DNA of 64,000 nucleotides, from the IMG/VR virus record IMGVR_UViG_3300038675_001020, positions 3,944 through 67,943 of that record; one strand, written 5' to 3'. This stretch comes from a virus. Of the stretch, positions 3,938 through 24,541 are shown piece after piece (the stretch's first letter is position 1; each line of letters starts with the position of its first letter). A program made the position numbers and the translations under genes. Below the pieces are notes generated by a model. It saw only the letters and a list, made by a program, of their open reading frames with translations, searched no databases and was not told the DNA's origin.

Positions 3938-4288
3938 TCAGGAATTTTCCTCCGGCGGGTGCGCCAGCAGTTCGTTTTTGAGCGCAGGCACATCCTGCGT
4001 AATCGTAAGCCAGATGTTGGCAGGACGAATAATTTCATACTGGTGGGCGGCGATATTGCGCAAGCCACGAATCTCTTTCCAGGGAATGCTGCTCGTTGCA
4101 AGCCGATACTCCTCGGAAAAAGATTTGGACAACTCCGCGATGTTGATCAGCGTCATCATCACGGCTTTTTGGGCAAGACGGGATTGCGCGAAGCTTTCCT
4201 CCGTTTCGTTGGCAATGAACGCTTCGATATCTGCAATTTCCCGCAGTATTTTCTTGCGAATGGTTACATCGCGCCGCTTAGCTTCCAT
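3938..4288 (-). CDS. hepT: HEPN/DUF86 (HepT-like) RNase toxin
   Basis: IPWKEIRGLRNIAAHQY (RX4HXY motif); downstream of an MNT gene. Confidence 0.88.
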   Translation of the reverse strand: MEAKRRDVTIRKKILREIADIEAFIANETEESFAQSRLAQKAVMMTLINIAELSKSFSEEYRLATSSIPWKEIRGLRNIAAHQYEIIRPANIWLTITQDVPALKNELLAHPPEENS

Positions 4289-4565
4289 AGAGCACCACCG
4301 TTTCTCCAATTTCAAGATCGCTGTCCGGCTGAAGTGGAATCTCGATCACGTCAACGTCAATCTTCAGCATTTCGGCAAGCGCTTCCTGAAAGCCAAACAA
4401 CTTCAGGAGGGAAACCGGCGATTCGTTGAATTCAACCAGAAAATCTGCGTCGCTGTGTTCTTGAGCTGTACCGCTGGCGTAGGAACCAAAGAGTTCGACC
4501 TTTTTAATCGGGAAGGCCGGCGCAACGGTTTCTACTGCCTGACGAATGTGGTTCATGCTGACCAT
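4278..4565 (-). CDS. mntA: Minimal nucleotidyltransferase (MNT) antitoxin
   Basis: LFGSYASG...SDADFLVEF...VDVI; GAGGAGG RBS. Confidence 0.88.
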   Translation of the reverse strand: MVSMNHIRQAVETVAPAFPIKKVELFGSYASGTAQEHSDADFLVEFNESPVSLLKLFGFQEALAEMLKIDVDVIEIPLQPDSDLEIGETVVLYGS

Positions 4566-4607
4566 TTGCGCACCTCCTCAGAACAGGTTGGAAACTGCCC
4601 CACTCGT

Positions 4608-4636
4608 ATTATACCCGAAAAATCAAGTGAAATCAA
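4608..4636 (-). promoter_or_regulatory. Sigma70/SigA promoter of the MNT-HEPN operon
   Basis: Minus strand TTGATT-17 bp-TATAAT. Confidence 0.75.
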
Positions 4637-4677
4637 CCGCGGCAACGGAAAGTAACGTGAGATAGAAAAAAACGGAG

Positions 4678-7600
4678 GTGATGCGCTTGCGCGTTTTGCA
4701 TCTGGACATTGAAACCTACTCCTCTGCCCCACTCCCTAAGTGCGGAGTATATCGCTATTGCGACTCGTCGGACTTCGAGATCCTGCTGCTGTCCTACGCC
4801 TTTGACGATGGGCCGGTAATAACCGTAGACCTGGCCTGTGGTGAAACGCTGCCGGACGAATTCCTCAAAGCGCTGGAAGACCCGAACATCCTGAAAATCG
4901 CGCACAATGCCGCGTTTGAGCGCGCGTGCTTTTCCAATCTTATCGGTCATTGGCTCGATCCAGCGCAATGGCGCTGCACAATGGTCATGGCGTGGTATTC
5001 CACATTGCCCGGCAGGCTGGCCGATGTGGCGGTGGTGCTGAACGTGACGGAGAAGAAGATGGAGGAAGGCAAAGACCTGATCCGCTACTTCTCCGCTCCC
5101 TGCAAGCCGACCAGGACCAACGGCGGGCGCACGCGCAACCTGCCGCAGCACGCGCCGGAGAAGTGGGTAATGTACAAGAAATACAACGCGCAGGATGTGG
5201 AAACCGAGCGCGCGGTCTATCATGCGCTACTTAAGCATCCACTGCCTGAGCACGAATGGGAACTGTACGCGCTCGACCAGCGGATCAATGACCGGGGCGT
5301 GCGGGTGGATCGGCTGCTGGTCAAACAGGCGATGGCGGTCGATCTGGCTTTTAGCCGGCAGGCGTTCCAGCGGGCACAGGAGTTGACAGGGCTGGAAAAC
5401 CCCGGCAGCGTAAGCCAGCTCAAGGCGTGGCTAGCCGATATGGACATGCCCATGGAGAGCCTGTCCAAGCGCATCGTGCAGGAGAAGGCTGCTGAGGCGG
5501 AGGGCATCGTCAAAGAACTGCTGGAGCTGCGTTTGGAACTGAGCAAGACATCGATCAAGAAGTACGAGGCCATGGCAAGAACGGTTTGCAGGGACGGACG
5601 GGTACATGGGATGCTGCAGTTTGGCGGCGCGTCGCGCACATTCAGATGGGCCGGACGTCTGGTGCAATTGCAAAACGTGCCCCAGAATCATTTGCCCGAT
5701 CTGCGCCTCGCCAGAGATATCGTGAAGCGCAGCGACGAGGAACAGCTGGAATTGCTGTTCGGGTCTGTGCCGGGCACGCTCTCTGAGCTGATCCGCACAG
5801 CGTTCATCCCCAAAGATGGATGCCGTTTTATCGTGGCGGACTTCTCAGCCATTGAAGCGCGGGTGCTGGCATGGCTGGCCGGGGAGGAATGGGTGCTGGA
5901 TGAGTTCCGGGGCAATGGCAAAATCTACGAGGCGACAGCCAGCCGCATGTTCCACGTCCCGCAGGAGACCATCGTCAAGGGGCATCCAAATTACGAATAC
6001 CGGCAGAAGGGGAAGCAGGCGACTTTGAGCTGTATCGCAGAAGGACAGCTCGTCTTGACAGATCAGGGATTGGTGCCCATCGAGCAGATTCAGCTGCACC
6101 ACAAGGTGTGGGATGGAGAGAATTGGGTACCGCATGAAGGACTTGTGTACCGTGGAAGAAGGGAGGTCATTACCTATGAAGGACTCACAGCAACGGCAGA
6201 CCATCTCGTCTGGGTGAAAGGACAGACACCTCCAATTCCGTTCGAGCAGGCTGCCGCCAACGAACTGCACCTCGCAGGGTGCGGGCAGACAGTACAGCAT
6301 AATCCCAATGAGTTCAATCGGGGCGTAGCCAGAGTGTATGACCTACGAAATGCCGGACCACATCACCGTTTTACCGTATCGGGGCATCTCGTCCATAACT
6401 GCGGCTACGGCGGCGGAGTCGGCGCACTGAAAGCCATGGGAGCGAAAATGGCCGAGGAGGAAATGCAGCCACTGGTGGACGCATGGCGCGCGGCCAATCC
6501 GCACATCGTGCAGTTCTGGTATGCGCTTGGGAATGCCGCCTCGGAGGTGATTGAGAAACACAATAGCGTCCGAGTGGGCAAGGTGAAGGTGTACTGGCAG
6601 GATAATCGGCTGCTGATCCGCCTGCCCAGCGGACGCGATCTGTGTTACCTCTCTCCGCGCTTTGTGACCAATCGCTTTGGTAGCCGGGGCATTGGATATC
6701 TGGCAGCATCCGCCAATGGAAAGATGGAGATGCAGGAGACCTTTGGCGGCAAGATTGTCGAGAACTGTTTGGCTGAAGGAACGCTTGTCATAACCAATTT
6801 CGGTCTTGTGCCAATAGAGCATATTTCTGCTTCACATCTCGTTTGGGATGGTGAAGCTTTTGTTCACCACGGGGGTGTGCTTTCCAAAGGGGTACAGCCA
6901 ACGATCTGTGTTAATGGGATATGGATGACAACAGAACACAAAATCCTTACAGAGAAAGGAATGGCAGCTTGTGGGCAAAGCGAGGGACTTAACTGGGCAT
7001 CAGTACAGCTACCTGACGGTTTTGAAGAGGGAGGGAAGCAACAGACACGGCAAACCGACGTGGAGATGCAGATGCGTTTGCGGCAGAGAGATTGTGGTTC
7101 CGGGATACTATCTCAACAGAAAAGGCAGAAAATATCATCAGCGTTCGTGCGGATGCATGAAAAACAAGCTGATCAGCCAGGCACAGACAAAGCATGGCAT
7201 GAGCCACCATCCCGCATTTGCGGTGTGGCATTCTATGAAGCAGCGGTGCGAAGACCCACAGCATCGGGCGTACCAAAACTATGGGGGACGCGGAATCAAA
7301 GTGTGCGAAGAATGGCAGCGCAGCTTCGAAACGTTCTGGCACGACATGGGACCAACGTACAAGCAGGGTTTGGAACTGGATCGGATAGACAACGACAAGG
7401 GATATTGCGCAGAAAATTGTCGCTGGGTAGAACGCAAAATCAACGCCCGAAACCGCAGGGTAACGAGGTTGATCGACACACCCTATGGCAGAATGTCGGT
7501 GGCGGAGCTGTGCGAACTAACGGGCATTGGAGAAACGACGATTTTGTATCGATTGGATCACAAGTGGCCGACAGAATTTCTATGTGCAAAACCCGACTAC

Positions 7601-7911
7601 CGAAATGTGTATACGACATCAGGAATTGTGGTCCGAGGCACAGATTCGCAGTGTGGGCAAATGGACATGCACGAGTAGTAAGCAACTGTACCCAAGCCAT
7701 CGCCCGCGATCTGCTGGCGCACGCCATGCAGAATCTCGAAGTGGCGGGCTACCCCATCGTGTTCCACGTCCACGATGAAGCGGTCATGGAGGTACCCATC
7801 GGTCAGGGAAGCGTGGAGGAAGCCTGCCGCATCATGGCCATTCCGCCGGACTGGGCGCAGGACTTGCCGCTTCGGGCGGACGGCGAGGAGATGGAGTTCT
7901 ACCGGAAATAA
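4678..7911 (+). CDS. polA: Phage family A DNA polymerase precursor containing two inteins
   Basis: Exo motifs LDIETYS and AHNAAFER; motif A DFSAIEARVLAW; motif B RQKGKQATLS/CGYG split by intein 1; motif C FHVHDEAV. Confidence 0.95.
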   Translation: MMRLRVLHLDIETYSSAPLPKCGVYRYCDSSDFEILLLSYAFDDGPVITVDLACGETLPDEFLKALEDPNILKIAHNAAFERACFSNLIGHWLDPAQWRCTMVMAWYSTLPGRLADVAVVLNVTEKKMEEGKDLIRYFSAPCKPTRTNGGRTRNLPQHAPEKWVMYKKYNAQDVETERAVYHALLKHPLPEHEWELYALDQRINDRGVRVDRLLVKQAMAVDLAFSRQAFQRAQELTGLENPGSVSQLKAWLADMDMPMESLSKRIVQEKAAEAEGIVKELLELRLELSKTSIKKYEAMARTVCRDGRVHGMLQFGGASRTFRWAGRLVQLQNVPQNHLPDLRLARDIVKRSDEEQLELLFGSVPGTLSELIRTAFIPKDGCRFIVADFSAIEARVLAWLAGEEWVLDEFRGNGKIYEATASRMFHVPQETIVKGHPNYEYRQKGKQATLSCIAEGQLVLTDQGLVPIEQIQLHHKVWDGENWVPHEGLVYRGRREVITYEGLTATADHLVWVKGQTPPIPFEQAAANELHLAGCGQTVQHNPNEFNRGVARVYDLRNAGPHHRFTVSGHLVHNCGYGGGVGALKAMGAKMAEEEMQPLVDAWRAANPHIVQFWYALGNAASEVIEKHNSVRVGKVKVYWQDNRLLIRLPSGRDLCYLSPRFVTNRFGSRGIGYLAASANGKMEMQETFGGKIVENCLAEGTLVITNFGLVPIEHISASHLVWDGEAFVHHGGVLSKGVQPTICVNGIWMTTEHKILTEKGMAACGQSEGLNWASVQLPDGFEEGGKQQTRQTDVEMQMRLRQRDCGSGILSQQKRQKISSAFVRMHEKQADQPGTDKAWHEPPSRICGVAFYEAAVRRPTASGVPKLWGTRNQSVRRMAAQLRNVLARHGTNVQAGFGTGSDRQRQGILRRKLSLGRTQNQRPKPQGNEVDRHTLWQNVGGGAVRTNGHWRNDDFVSIGSQVADRISMCKTRLPKCVYDIRNCGPRHRFAVWANGHARVVSNCTQAIARDLLAHAMQNLEVAGYPIVFHVHDEAVMEVPIGQGSVEEACRIMAIPPDWAQDLPLRADGEEMEFYRK
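6031..6399 (+). mobile_element. Mini-intein 1 (123 aa) in polymerase motif B
   Basis: Starts CIAEGQLVLT, block B TADH, ends VYDL...HLVHN followed by extein Cys; removal restores QATLS-CGYGGG. Confidence 0.93.
6766..7686 (+). mobile_element. Intein 2 (307 aa) with out-of-frame endonuclease cargo
   Basis: Starts CLAEGTLVIT, block B TTEH, ends VYDIRNCGPRHRF...VVSN followed by Cys; removal restores GKIVEN-CTQAIARD. Confidence 0.92.
6971..7678 (+). CDS. HNH-type homing endonuclease nested in the +1 frame inside intein 2
   Basis: DLTG..Y..LTV..WRCRCVCG..SCGC, WHSMKQRC, YGGRGIKVCEEW, LDRIDNDKGYCAENCRW..NARN, C-terminal HTH-like segment; GTG start 10 nt after GAAAGGA. Confidence 0.9.
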   Translation: MGKARDLTGHQYSYLTVLKREGSNRHGKPTWRCRCVCGREIVVPGYYLNRKGRKYHQRSCGCMKNKLISQAQTKHGMSHHPAFAVWHSMKQRCEDPQHRAYQNYGGRGIKVCEEWQRSFETFWHDMGPTYKQGLELDRIDNDKGYCAENCRWVERKINARNRRVTRLIDTPYGRMSVAELCELTGIGETTILYRLDHKWPTEFLCAKPDYRNVYTTSGIVVRGTDSQCGQMDMHE

Positions 7912-7938
7912 CTTCATTGCCCGTATCAAACTGTTCAC

Positions 7939-7970
7939 TTGACTTTTCATCGGGATAGAGTGAGTAATAT
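7939..7970 (+). promoter_or_regulatory. Accessory-gene promoter-like motif, copy 1
   Basis: TTGACT-N13-GAGTGAGTAATA; one of six copies with identical spacing. Confidence 0.65.
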
Positions 7971-7998
7971 GCTACCGCGAGAAAGGAGGGCTCGAAAT

Positions 7999-8286
7999 AT
8001 GCCCGTACAAGAGAATCTCAGCCATTCCGACCTGCCCAATCTGACCTACGACGCCGTGCTCAAGTTGCCCGAGGGTGCACACATTGCGCACGTCAATTCC
8101 GAAAAGTGCATGGTGATCCGATTGCGGCAGGGCTACACGCTGACCACTGTTACTCCGGATAAACGCCTGCGCGTCCAGTATTACAGCGAACGCGCGCACC
8201 TGTTCTGGGAGGACATCGTGGAGAACGCATTCAGAGACAGAACCAAACGAGCGAGGAGGGACACAAATGAGAATCCTGATCGTTGA
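7999..8286 (+). CDS. Hypothetical protein
   Basis: AAAGGAGG RBS before ATG 7999. Confidence 0.7.
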   Translation: MPVQENLSHSDLPNLTYDAVLKLPEGAHIAHVNSEKCMVIRLRQGYTLTTVTPDKRLRVQYYSERAHLFWEDIVENAFRDRTKRARRDTNENPDR

Positions 8287-8617
8287 ACCCGGTAAGCGTC
8301 CTCGCGCGGCGGACATCCCGTACACGCTCAAGGCCATGCAGAGCGTTGTCGGCGGACTGATTACGGCCATTTATCCGTGGGGTGACCCCGTCGCGCTGGT
8401 CTGCGATGACGAGGGATTGCTCAAGGGCTATGAGCTCAACCGTCAGGTATCCAGGGACGTGATCATTGCAGGCACATTTTTCATCTGCGGACTGGCAGAA
8501 GACAATTTCACCAGCCTGCCGGACGAATCCATGGAGAAGTATGAGCGCCTGTTCCGCTATCCTGAGATATTTGTGCGCACGGAGGCGGGCGTGATGGCCA
8601 TACCGCTGAAGGAGTAA
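8267..8617 (+). CDS. DUF3846 family protein
   Basis: LIVEPGK, LKAMQSVVGG, LVCDDEG, LNR, IAGTFFICG. Confidence 0.8.
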   Translation: MRILIVEPGKRPRAADIPYTLKAMQSVVGGLITAIYPWGDPVALVCDDEGLLKGYELNRQVSRDVIIAGTFFICGLAEDNFTSLPDESMEKYERLFRYPEIFVRTEAGVMAIPLKE

Positions 8618-8694
8618 ACACCGATGTGCAACCGCGAGGCTCGCTGGAAGGCGCGCCTCTTTTTTGTGCCGAGAAACAGTTGGGAGGTTTATGT

Positions 8695-22899: not shown

Positions 22900-23500
22900 A
22901 AACGGCCCCGGCGCGCCCGGCGGATTTCCCTGCGGGCGGAAACCCTACACAAGCCGGAAGCTTTGATGCGGCTTTTCGCCGCCGGCCCGCCCCACGCCGC
23001 CGTCGCGCCCGCCCCGCGCGTGCCCGGCCCCGCCCGTCGCGCCCGCCCCGGCCCCGCGCCCGGCGGCCCGTTTTCCCGCGCCCTGCGCCGCCCACCCCGC
23101 GAAATTTGGCCCCGCCCGCGCGTCGTCCGCCCCGCCCGCGCCCGGCGGCCCGTTTTCCCCGCGCCCCGCCGCCTCGCCCGCCACGCGGCCCGTGTGCGCC
23201 CGACGCGGGCTTTGGCGCGCCGCCCCGCCGCCGCGCGCCCGGCTGTGCCTCCCGGCGGCCCGGCCCCGCGCCCGTGTGCCCGGCGCGCCCCGCCGCCCGC
23301 CCGGCCTTGCGCCGCCCGCTCCGCGCCGCGCCTCGGGCGCCCCCCCTGTGCCCGCGCCGCCCCCCCGGCCCGCCGCCGCGGCTGTGCCCGCGCGCCCTCC
23401 GCCCCGACTCCCCAGGGGGGGGCGAATCTTTGCGAACGGTTCCTAAGAGACCGCCGCGCTCTCACGCATAATACTCCGCGTAATTCGGGGCCCGGGGGTC
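22900..23500. other. Extremely GC-rich, A-depleted non-coding tract; candidate packaging (cos) region at its right end
   Basis: Only 7 A in 22981-23400; repeat gcccggcggcccgttttccc near 23058 and 23140; G-run plus GACCGCCGCGC at 23411-23460; lies at the divergence point before the packaging genes. Confidence 0.55.
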
Positions 23501-23557
23501 ACCGAAAGAAAACGAGTGCCATGTGCAAATTTGCTTTGTTTGGAGGAGTGTGTTTTC

Positions 23558-24541
23558 ATGCCTAATATTGAAAAGAAGCTCATCATTGGCCAGAAATATG
23601 GTCACCTCACAGCAATTTGTGAAGCGCCTCGAGGGAAACATGGTGAGCGCCGGTATATGTGCCGCTGTGATTGTGGGCATGTTGGAAACTATATTGTTTA
23701 TCCAATACTAAAAGGAGTTACGAAGAATTGCAGAAAATGTGTTCCTCATTCAGGCGGCATGCCGCCACCGGATCTGGCGGGGAAAACCCTTAATGGGTGG
23801 AAAGTCATTGCAAAAGAAAAAGTGGTTAGGAAAGAAAGCGGCAATTTGTACTTTTTTCGCTGTCAGTGCTCTCGCTGCGGAAACGAATCTGTGTTGACTG
23901 CAGGGCAGATATATAACAGCAAGTCAAGCCGATGCCATAAATGTGGGCCGATGTATCATTTTCATATCGAGGGTGGATCGGCATACGGCGCCTTGTCGGA
24001 TGGTGCTGAATTCATCATTGATACTGAGGACATTGCAAAGGTCGATCAGCATTATTGGTTTCGTGAAAGAAAGGATAAATATATAGTATCCCGCGATGGA
24101 AATCGCATGCATCGCCTGGTTCTCGGTATCACAGATCCAAGTATCATGATTGATCATATCAATCGGAATCGGTCAGATAATCGAAAGGCGAATCTTCGCG
24201 TTGCCACTACAGCCCAAAATTGTTTCAATCATAGCAAATTATCTACAAACAGGACTGGATATATCGGCGTGTATTTTAGCCAAGTAAGCCAACGCTATGA
24301 GGTAAAGGTTGGATACAATCAAAAGAGAATATATCTGGGTTCGTCGAAAGATGATTTGATATATCTCGCACAAATGTACAATATAGCCGCAAGTTATCTA
24401 TTTGATGAATATGTTGGCGAATTGAACGATGTACCAGATCCTTCTCCAGAACTGGTCAAGCGTGTAATTCAAAAATGCGAAAAATATAAAAAAGCATCTG
24501 TCCAGGCGGCAGGTGCTTTTTCAATGGAGGGCGCCGTATGA
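23558..24541 (+). CDS. Free-standing HNH/AP2 homing endonuclease
   Basis: Two CxCxxCG repeats, MHRLVL, IDHINRNRSDNRKANLR, AP2-like NRTGYIGV...IYLG; low GC; GGAGGAG RBS. Confidence 0.88.
   Translation: MPNIEKKLIIGQKYGHLTAICEAPRGKHGERRYMCRCDCGHVGNYIVYPILKGVTKNCRKCVPHSGGMPPPDLAGKTLNGWKVIAKEKVVRKESGNLYFFRCQCSRCGNESVLTAGQIYNSKSSRCHKCGPMYHFHIEGGSAYGALSDGAEFIIDTEDIAKVDQHYWFRERKDKYIVSRDGNRMHRLVLGITDPSIMIDHINRNRSDNRKANLRVATTAQNCFNHSKLSTNRTGYIGVYFSQVSQRYEVKVGYNQKRIYLGSSKDDLIYLAQMYNIAASYLFDEYVGELNDVPDPSPELVKRVIQKCEKYKKASVQAAGAFSMEGAV

Follow-up and report, generated by a model that had tools for sequence, protein, structure and literature searches.

A candidate nuclease gene nested in the +1 reading frame of an intein in a provirus family A DNA polymerase

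Main

The window analyzed here is a stretch of 64,000 nucleotides (positions 3,944 to 67,943) of the IMG/VR record IMGVR_UViG_3300038675_001020, a metagenome-derived provirus record of 67,943 bases. On its plus strand lies a family A DNA polymerase gene (polA) that is interrupted by two inteins, and the second of these (intein 2) contains a nested gene in the +1 reading frame between its splicing domains. A sequence-only reading of the window had described this gene as a complete HNH endonuclease, overlapping an intein frame that stays open throughout, and had implied that the arrangement was new. Here, we follow up that description through comparison with related loci and assembled contigs, structure models and profile searches. 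Positions are those of the window, L-numbers denote related loci from viral contigs or bacterial genomes, and X-numbers denote sequencing runs with assembled contigs. The features on which the argument rests are the following (ORF, open reading frame; pLDDT, predicted local distance difference test).

4678-7911, plus strand: precursor of a family A (polA-like) DNA polymerase, an ORF of 1077 amino acids with two inteins; Pfam DNA_pol_A, E 9.5e-19.
6766-7686, plus strand: intein 2, 307 amino acids, at site 2 (GKIVEN/CTQAIA, the slash marking the insertion point); starts with CLAEG and ends with RVVSN, followed by Cys.
6766-7029, plus strand: N-terminal splicing domain of intein 2, residues 1-88; pLDDT 92-97, constrained in the intein frame.
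7030-7575, plus strand: linker of intein 2 in the intein frame, residues 89-270; pLDDT 38-60, stop-free and otherwise unconstrained, with no confident fold.
7576-7686, plus strand: C-terminal splicing domain of intein 2 (VYDIRNCGPRHRF...VVSN); pLDDT 92-96, overlapped by the unaligned tail of the +1 ORF.
6954-6960, plus strand: Shine-Dalgarno-like GAAAGGA, read from the sequence, 10 nt upstream of GTG 6971.
6971-7678, plus strand: nested +1-frame gene, 235 amino acids, GTG start; phrog_374 'HNH endonuclease', E 6.3e-62.
6031-6399, plus strand: intein 1, a mini-intein of 123 amino acids at site 1 (KQATLS/CGYGGG) in the polymerase motif B region; no nested gene.

Both inteins were delimited by aligning polA with five relatives and then locating the motifs. 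In a viral contig whose polA is 82% identical (L040), intein 1 and intein 2 are both precisely absent; its intein-less polymerase match is 1941 nt, or ~647 codons, and the exteins in the window sum to ~647 amino acids. The empty site 2 of L040 has a native Cys.

The nested gene

The +1 frame is closed by a TGA at 6926-6928 and is open from 6929, 14 codons ahead of the start, and because of that upstream stop GTG 6971 is the first ATG, GTG or TTG that the frame offers. The ORF ends in tandem stops (TAG 7676-7678 and TAA 7679-7681), 8 nt short of the end of intein 2, and its phrog_374 match spans residues 1-194, beginning with the first residue of the GTG-initiated product. The intein of L053, inserted at the same site, has the same AAGGA, the same 10-nt spacing and the same GTG, and in four of the five site-2 relatives the start lies 8-9 codons ahead of the first conserved block and is itself preceded, at 8-10 nt, by a Shine-Dalgarno-like motif.

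A promoter and terminator scan gave no promoter-like site in 6300-8000 and a single terminator-like site there, on the minus strand and not beyond shuffle expectation, and the RNA fold around the start (6930-7010) is not more stable than that of shuffled sequences (z 0.98). No intron family was matched in 4000-9000 at E <= 1 with Rfam, which returned one sub-threshold match, to a small RNA on the opposite strand. A self-splicing intron (group I or group II) was rejected, given that no intron model matches and that the host frame is open across the insertion; RNA-level splicing, which the sequence-only reading had named as a refuting outcome, finds no support here. From the conserved start and its Shine-Dalgarno-like motif, the nuclease would most likely be made separately, by internal initiation at GTG 6971 on the polA mRNA.

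Selection on the two frames

The intein frame is stop-free across the overlap, as had been claimed, with 0 stops in the ORF 4678-7911. When the nested gene was shuffled among synonymous codons, the intein frame acquired a mean of 9.85 stops and remained open in 0 of 20000 shuffles, and two related inteins gave the same outcome. Relatives of the 235-amino-acid product were found at 30 loci in viral contigs, and the 19 examined, all free-standing genes, have 3-33 stops in the frame equivalent to the intein frame. The codon choice of the nested gene points the same way. A T-ending nuclease codon followed by a codon that starts with AA, AG or GA creates an intein-frame stop; T-ending codons make up 0 of the 65 +1 codons that precede such a codon vs 34 of 169 elsewhere (Fisher p 6.6e-6), with a T-ending synonym available for 54 of the 65. 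The avoidance of T noted in the sequence-only reading is thus borne out, and the intein frame is open through selection, not chance.

Distant pairs were used to ask which frame is constrained, because seven close site-1 alleles have only 11 variable sites in the overlap (5, 4 and 2 by polA codon position), too few to separate the frames. The +1 gene of L053 is 55-58% identical to that of the window, and the two inteins differ by indels only in multiples of three. Across the overlap, amino-acid identity between the two reaches 111/195 (57%) when the nuclease frame is translated and 51/194 (26%) for the intein frame; the third frame, interrupted by 11 stops in either sequence, gives 61/193. Counted by intein codon position, the differences number 31, 17 and 48 in the N-terminal splicing domain, where the third position is the most free and the intein frame is hence constrained, and 110, 63 and 59 in the overlap, where they peak at intein position 1, that is, at nuclease position 3. 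The site-1 inteins of L033 and L034 behave in the same manner, with 58.7% identity in the nuclease frame vs 29.9% in the intein frame and 101, 58 and 49 differences by position. As judged from these alignments, the nuclease frame of the overlap is under purifying selection and the intein frame evolves like non-coding DNA, except that stops are purged; this agrees with the earlier expectation of purifying selection on the +1 frame only.

Splicing domain and apparent mobility

Intein 2 has Cys1 (in CLAEG) and block B (TTEH), and C1, T55 and H58 are invariant over 18 aligned inteins. The terminal Asn is retained in at least 90% of the aligned inteins, the +1 Cys is taken from the extein, and D284, G289, R293 and F294 are invariant in the C-terminal splicing part. 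In a structure model built from the alignment of these 18 inteins, the two ends (residues 1-88 and 271-307, pLDDT >90) form a Hint fold that matches the NpuDnaE intein with Z 16.5, a root-mean-square deviation (rmsd) of 1.7 and 117 of 140 residues aligned. A Z of at least 8 was obtained for 76 of the 101 chains compared with the model, and the 50 that were listed all belong to inteins or other Hint domains. No Pfam family was found in the intein-frame product of intein 2. The normal splicing blocks (Cys1, TTEH, VVSN/Cys) and the middle segment without a recognisable domain that had been described from the sequence were accordingly both recovered. Intein 2 is a class-1 Hint-fold intein by its nucleophile, block B, terminal Asn, modelled fold and precise presence or absence, and its splicing machinery looks intact by residues and predicted Hint fold.

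Intein 2 is covered gap-free by contigs of three other studies, for which no insertions or deletions are recorded; the compensating indels that would place the nuclease in the intein frame were looked for in these contigs and not found. In the X2 contig (6615-7900), all 13 differences listed at its depth, a number equal to the contig total, lie in the C-extein at 7776-7872 and none in the intein, and the contigs of X3 and X6 are identical to the window within intein 2. Intein 2 is identical between contigs with ~6% C-extein difference. A contig of X17, a run labelled RNA-Seq and rated probably DNA, joins 6762 to 7684 and skips exactly the 921 nt of intein 2; because its flanks differ from the window (7 of 100 letters, record 8), we read it as an intein-less allele and not as RNA splicing. 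Intein 1 is skipped in contigs of X2, X6 and X17, with 9-12 diverged letters allowed at the joint.

The GC content of intein 2 is 0.50 vs 0.59 in the exteins. Along the gene it runs at 0.48-0.53 across intein 2 (6700-7600), ~0.54 across intein 1 and 0.58-0.62 in the exteins, and the low GC of the inteins fits acquisition from DNA of lower GC content. Over a set of seven related site-1 alleles, the density of variable sites is 0.004-0.023 in the intein vs 0.113 and 0.080 in the exteins. Elements that move between alleles usually show such empty alleles, low intein diversity and GC contrast, and by these sequence signs intein 2 appears to belong to an element of this kind.

Distribution and probable origin of nested genes

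Scanning viral contigs with an alignment of mini-inteins gave 80 loci, ten of which are the same contigs as L032-L042. By profile analysis, 55 inteins from viral contigs have a middle of >100 amino acids, and all 55 have a sense-strand ORF in an alternative frame that spans the whole middle: 35 in +1, 20 in +2 and 0 in frame. Together with the product in the window, the 55 nested products form one homology component of 23 clusters at 60% identity. Bacterial genomes, scanned in the same way, gave 22 large inteins at 21 loci, and all 22 carry a nested gene in +1; the carriers include complete chromosomes (Gardnerella spp., Allobaculum mucilyticum and Eubacterium sp. F2). Both frames are thus open in the homologues, as the sequence-only reading had proposed to check, the site-2 intein of L053 included, and the search for homologues with the nuclease in frame returned 0 of the 77 large inteins (55 from viral contigs and 22 from bacterial genomes). 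This absence is not statistically significant, because about three nesting lineages suffice in the tree described below and (2/3)^3 = 0.30.

The claim that standard annotation would miss the nested gene holds in part. The same layout, in its site-1 version, occurs in Gardnerella phage vB_Gva_AB1, whose GenBank genome is annotated there only as 'DNA polymerase'. On the other side, the exact 235-amino-acid product of the window is recorded from 22 contigs in the protein collection, and gene callers sometimes call the nested ORF. A prophage host search gave only a 78%-identical match over 86 residues, to a metagenome-assembled genome (MAG) of Clostridia (L156).

A maximum-likelihood tree built on 36 nuclease cores places the nested genes in three clades with one fixed frame per clade, and the nuclease sub-clades match insertion sites. 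The five site-2 nested genes, including that of the window, form one clade (support 94/91) whose sister is the free-standing gene of L032, and both lie within a 100/100 clade that holds 13 free-standing genes. The sample of free-standing genes in the tree is biased, because it was collected by similarity to the protein of the window.

Several relatives show other arrangements. The L032 gene (L032:5459-6028) is a free-standing homologue, 36% identical to the nuclease of the window, and lies directly downstream of a polA with a site-1 mini-intein only; it possibly represents the stage of a 'collaborating' free-standing endonuclease. The site-1 intein of L053 (L053:333-803) has 157 amino acids and no nuclease and retains a stretch (GDGRRAIRLG...) that resembles the linker start of the 309-amino-acid site-1 inteins, and the mini-inteins of L125 and L126 retain short +1-frame matches to the nuclease profile. 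The linker-like stretch of L053 suggests that mini-inteins may arise through deletion of the nested gene. L088 (3001-3861 and 4240-5160) and L132 (3001-3930 and 4297-5184) each have one polymerase with two large inteins and a nested nuclease in each intein; in L088 the two nested genes differ in frame (+2 in one, +1 in the other), and the second intein lies 2-3 residues from site 2 of the window.

Split polymerase genes, with an intein half on each ORF, were seen at L047:1417-2628, L095:3001-4192, L098, L102, L113, L123, L131 and L151, and in these split relatives an ORF of 297-317 amino acids overlaps both intein halves. The gap ORFs of L047, L095, L098, L123 and L151 match homing-endonuclease PHROGs (314 or 7168), three of the five also matching 5123 (GIY-YIG motif name). 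The gap of the split polymerase in L100 holds a phrog_374 gene, and that in L154 an anti-repressor-like gene.

The relatives can be placed in a graded series, from an empty site (L040) over a mini-intein with an adjacent free-standing nuclease (L032) and the nested state of the window to split inteins (L047, L095). Such a series would be expected if free-standing endonuclease genes invaded mini-inteins, the course proposed by Dassa et al. and Gosselin et al., and the sequence comparison makes it likely that the element originated from a mini-intein invaded in this way.

The nested protein

At its N-terminus the nested protein is Cys-rich and zinc-ribbon-like; a core resembling a His-Me finger (LDR138IDNDKGY145CAEN149CRW) follows, and the C-terminal part is helix-turn-helix-like. 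The model of the protein has a pLDDT of 85.2. The family profile matches the HNH core of I-HmuI (1u3e) with E 0.0058. Pfam assigned no family to the nested product and gave only a sub-threshold match to HTH_24. The description as a complete HNH endonuclease in the +1 frame therefore stands for the ORF, the GTG, the GAAAGGA spacing and the phrog_374 match, whereas 'HNH' itself is a family annotation only, with no Pfam HNH match and with Arg in place of His.

Elsewhere in the window, a free-standing ORF of 364 amino acids (23447-24538, plus strand) is related to the nested nuclease (phrog_99, E 1.9e-29; phrog_374, E 3.8e-23). Two N-terminal repeats of its product match the Cys-rich part of the nuclease profile and its C-terminus is HNH-like, so that the prophage has a second member of the superfamily, outside any intein. 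Downstream of polA, a large primase-helicase gene (8626-11145, plus strand) has no intein and matches phrog_256 (DNA helicase, E reported as 0) and phrog_9765 (DNA primase). Neither the intein profile nor the nuclease profile found further inteins in the window.

Interpretation

What the sequence-only reading had observed is confirmed, and all of its proposed sequence-level checks turned out in support of its interpretation. We consider it highly probable that intein 2 carries a nested nuclease gene of the free-standing type that is separately translated and homes into intein-less polA. In this mechanism, ribosomes on polA would read through the overlap and make a non-conserved, probably disordered linker of ~180 amino acids between the splicing halves, and intein 2 would excise in cis and restore the polymerase. 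On the same mRNA, the nuclease would be initiated internally at GTG 6971 behind GAAAGGA. It would then cut intein-less polA at or near GKIVEN/CTQA, and repair would copy the intein and the nested gene together. Selection would act on the +1 frame for its amino-acid sequence and on the polA frame only for the absence of stops and frameshifts.

Several observations weigh against this mechanism. No RNA runs are recorded among the listed runs that hold the stretch, and the +2-frame clade of nested genes is mostly without Shine-Dalgarno-like motifs. The penultimate residue of intein 2 is Ser, giving a Ser-Asn end where His-Asn is commoner. The low-diversity signature comes from site-1 relatives, the evidence for spread of the window's own element being the assembled contigs. 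For the nuclease, the invariant Arg138 aligns with His75 in the D-H motif of I-HmuI (number counted from the alignment), a residue that we take to be the catalytic general base, and the canonical HNH general-base His is absent. Pfam HNH models match 0 of 26 family members at E <= 0.01. When the nuclease model was compared with the PDB by Foldseek, nothing matched at E <= 0.001, and I-HmuI came fifth at E 0.32. For a beta-beta-alpha-metal fold the best match, the restriction enzyme PacI (3m7k_A), is middling (Z 6.4, rmsd 2.6, 77 residues, model residues 74-165), and with a Z of only 6.4 catalytic activity is not assured.

PacI is also without the catalytic His and uses a loop Tyr instead (PMC5714182). 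The invariant Tyr145 of the nested family lies in the equivalent loop of the model. PacI-like chemistry through Tyr145, a role that is only predicted, is a lead and not a demonstration.

A further question is whether the out-of-frame layout is a stable, selected design for this His-less nuclease family and not a passing accident of insertion. The nuclease might need the form of a free protein, and in-frame embedding might impair splicing or the assembly of the nuclease. Such a design would explain both the absence of in-frame cases among the 77 large inteins and the one fixed frame per nested clade. We regard it as doubtful. If true, internal initiation on the polA mRNA would couple the dose of the nuclease to the expression of the replication genes.

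Turning to the alternatives, the nested gene in this copy could be a recently stranded relic, with the intein inherited vertically and the nuclease unmade or inactive. The missing catalytic His and the lack of expression evidence for the nested gene would fit this, as would the gene-less mini-intein that persists at site 1 of the same polA and the linker remnant that is all the site-1 intein of L053 retains. A relic is improbable, given that an intact +1 ORF is found in every one of the large inteins, 55 viral and 22 genomic, that the nested gene is under purifying selection by the codon-position pattern, and that intein 2 is identical in contigs whose C-exteins differ by ~6%. The Arg is invariant across the family, which makes it a family trait and not decay.

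Slightly less credible still is that the nested protein is a DNA-binding or nuclease factor with another role for the phage (replication, packaging or competition) that merely resides in an intein. Phage HNH-like genes have several known roles (PMC11855218), the family is without the HNH His, and the prophage has the free-standing paralogue at 23447-24538. A beneficial gene would, however, have no reason to sit only inside inteins, and here the nuclease clades follow insertion sites, intein diversity is far below extein diversity, and presence or absence is polymorphic at the exact intein boundaries.

Programmed +1 ribosomal frameshifting from the polA and intein frame, which would make the nuclease a fusion and not the product of independent initiation, is very improbable. 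The 14 open codons between 6929 and the GTG would allow it, and the absence of an internal promoter-like site is in its favour, although this absence implies under either reading that the nuclease is read from the polA mRNA. Frameshifting does not account for the start and Shine-Dalgarno-like motif conserved in four of the five site-2 relatives or for homology to free-standing genes that starts at residue 1 of the GTG product, and there is no special RNA structure around the start (z 0.98). An assembly artefact, in which two compensating indels shift a normally in-frame HNH domain, has a negligible chance: apart from the metagenomic origin of the provirus record nothing was found in its favour, and contigs of three other studies match with 0 gaps, the same layout recurs in complete isolate chromosomes and a GenBank phage genome, and none of the 77 large inteins is an in-frame homologue.

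Relation to known systems

The novelty implied by the sequence-only reading is not supported, because inteins with out-of-frame endonucleases are already in print in preprints of 2025-26. Actinobacteriophage inteins with the endonuclease in a separate frame have been described by Gosselin, Arsenault and Gogarten (bioRxiv 10.1101/2025.01.02.630785), the endonucleases being antisense LAGLIDADG genes, antisense VSR-like genes and a sense 'frame 3' endonuclease VII-like gene, with the HNH inteins in frame. As in those inteins, the element of the window has an intact splicing domain, an endonuclease ORF in another frame between the blocks, and an in-frame middle without a fold; the endonuclease is likewise kin to free-standing phage genes, there are signs of continuing transfer, and the same origin by invasion has been proposed. 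Unlike those inteins, the nuclease here is of the phrog_374 type, His-less and His-Me-finger-like, in frame +1, the host gene encodes a family A polymerase, and the elements are prophages of Bacillota and Gardnerella.

The second close case is a LAGLIDADG endonuclease that lies out of frame in the dnaX intein of cyanobacteria (Phillips, DeSimone and Gogarten, bioRxiv 10.64898/2026.09.14.751524). There too, purifying selection acts on the overlapping ORF with relaxed constraint on the overlap in the extein frame, mini-intein alleles occur alongside empty ones, and secondary invasion of a mini-intein is proposed. The dnaX intein differs in having LAGLIDADG in a '+2ORF' and a cellular host gene, dnaX, with no phage.

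Outside inteins, the ShiLan domain in the methylase of a mycobacteriophage is an HNH insertion that lies out of frame (Arsenault et al., Genes 2025, PMC11855218). It shares with the nested gene a hidden HNH-type gene, a GTG near the 5' end of the insertion, a stop in its last bases and an open host frame. In contrast, it has no splicing domain, is thought to stay in the protein, and had no ribosome-binding site detected, whereas the nested gene of the window is flanked by a complete Hint domain and has a Shine-Dalgarno-like motif.

In fractured genes, a free-standing endonuclease gene lies between the halves of a split intein (Dassa et al., NAR 2009, PMC2677866). Intein 2 resembles these in having an endonuclease of the free-standing type between its N and C parts, and the broken state itself is seen in the relatives L047, L095, L098, L100 and L123. 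For the window, a fractured gene with a split intein was rejected: 4678-7911 is a single continuous ORF, and splicing in cis is expected.

A literature search gave no out-of-frame HNH-type gene in an intein of a phage family A polymerase, with the reservation that such cases may be listed in the supplementary tables of Gosselin et al. The element is hence a further member of a kind already in print, set apart by its nuclease family, reading frame, host gene and phage group.

The element offers a sequence-verified case of two-frame coding in which selection only keeps one frame open and acts on the protein encoded by the other. Through a graded series within one gene family, it lends weight to a 'splicing first, endonuclease invades later' course of intein evolution. 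It also brings up an uncharacterised nuclease family in which Arg replaces the canonical His. Nested genes of this kind can escape annotation, and the cultured Gardnerella phage vB_Gva_AB1 offers a bench system in which to study them.

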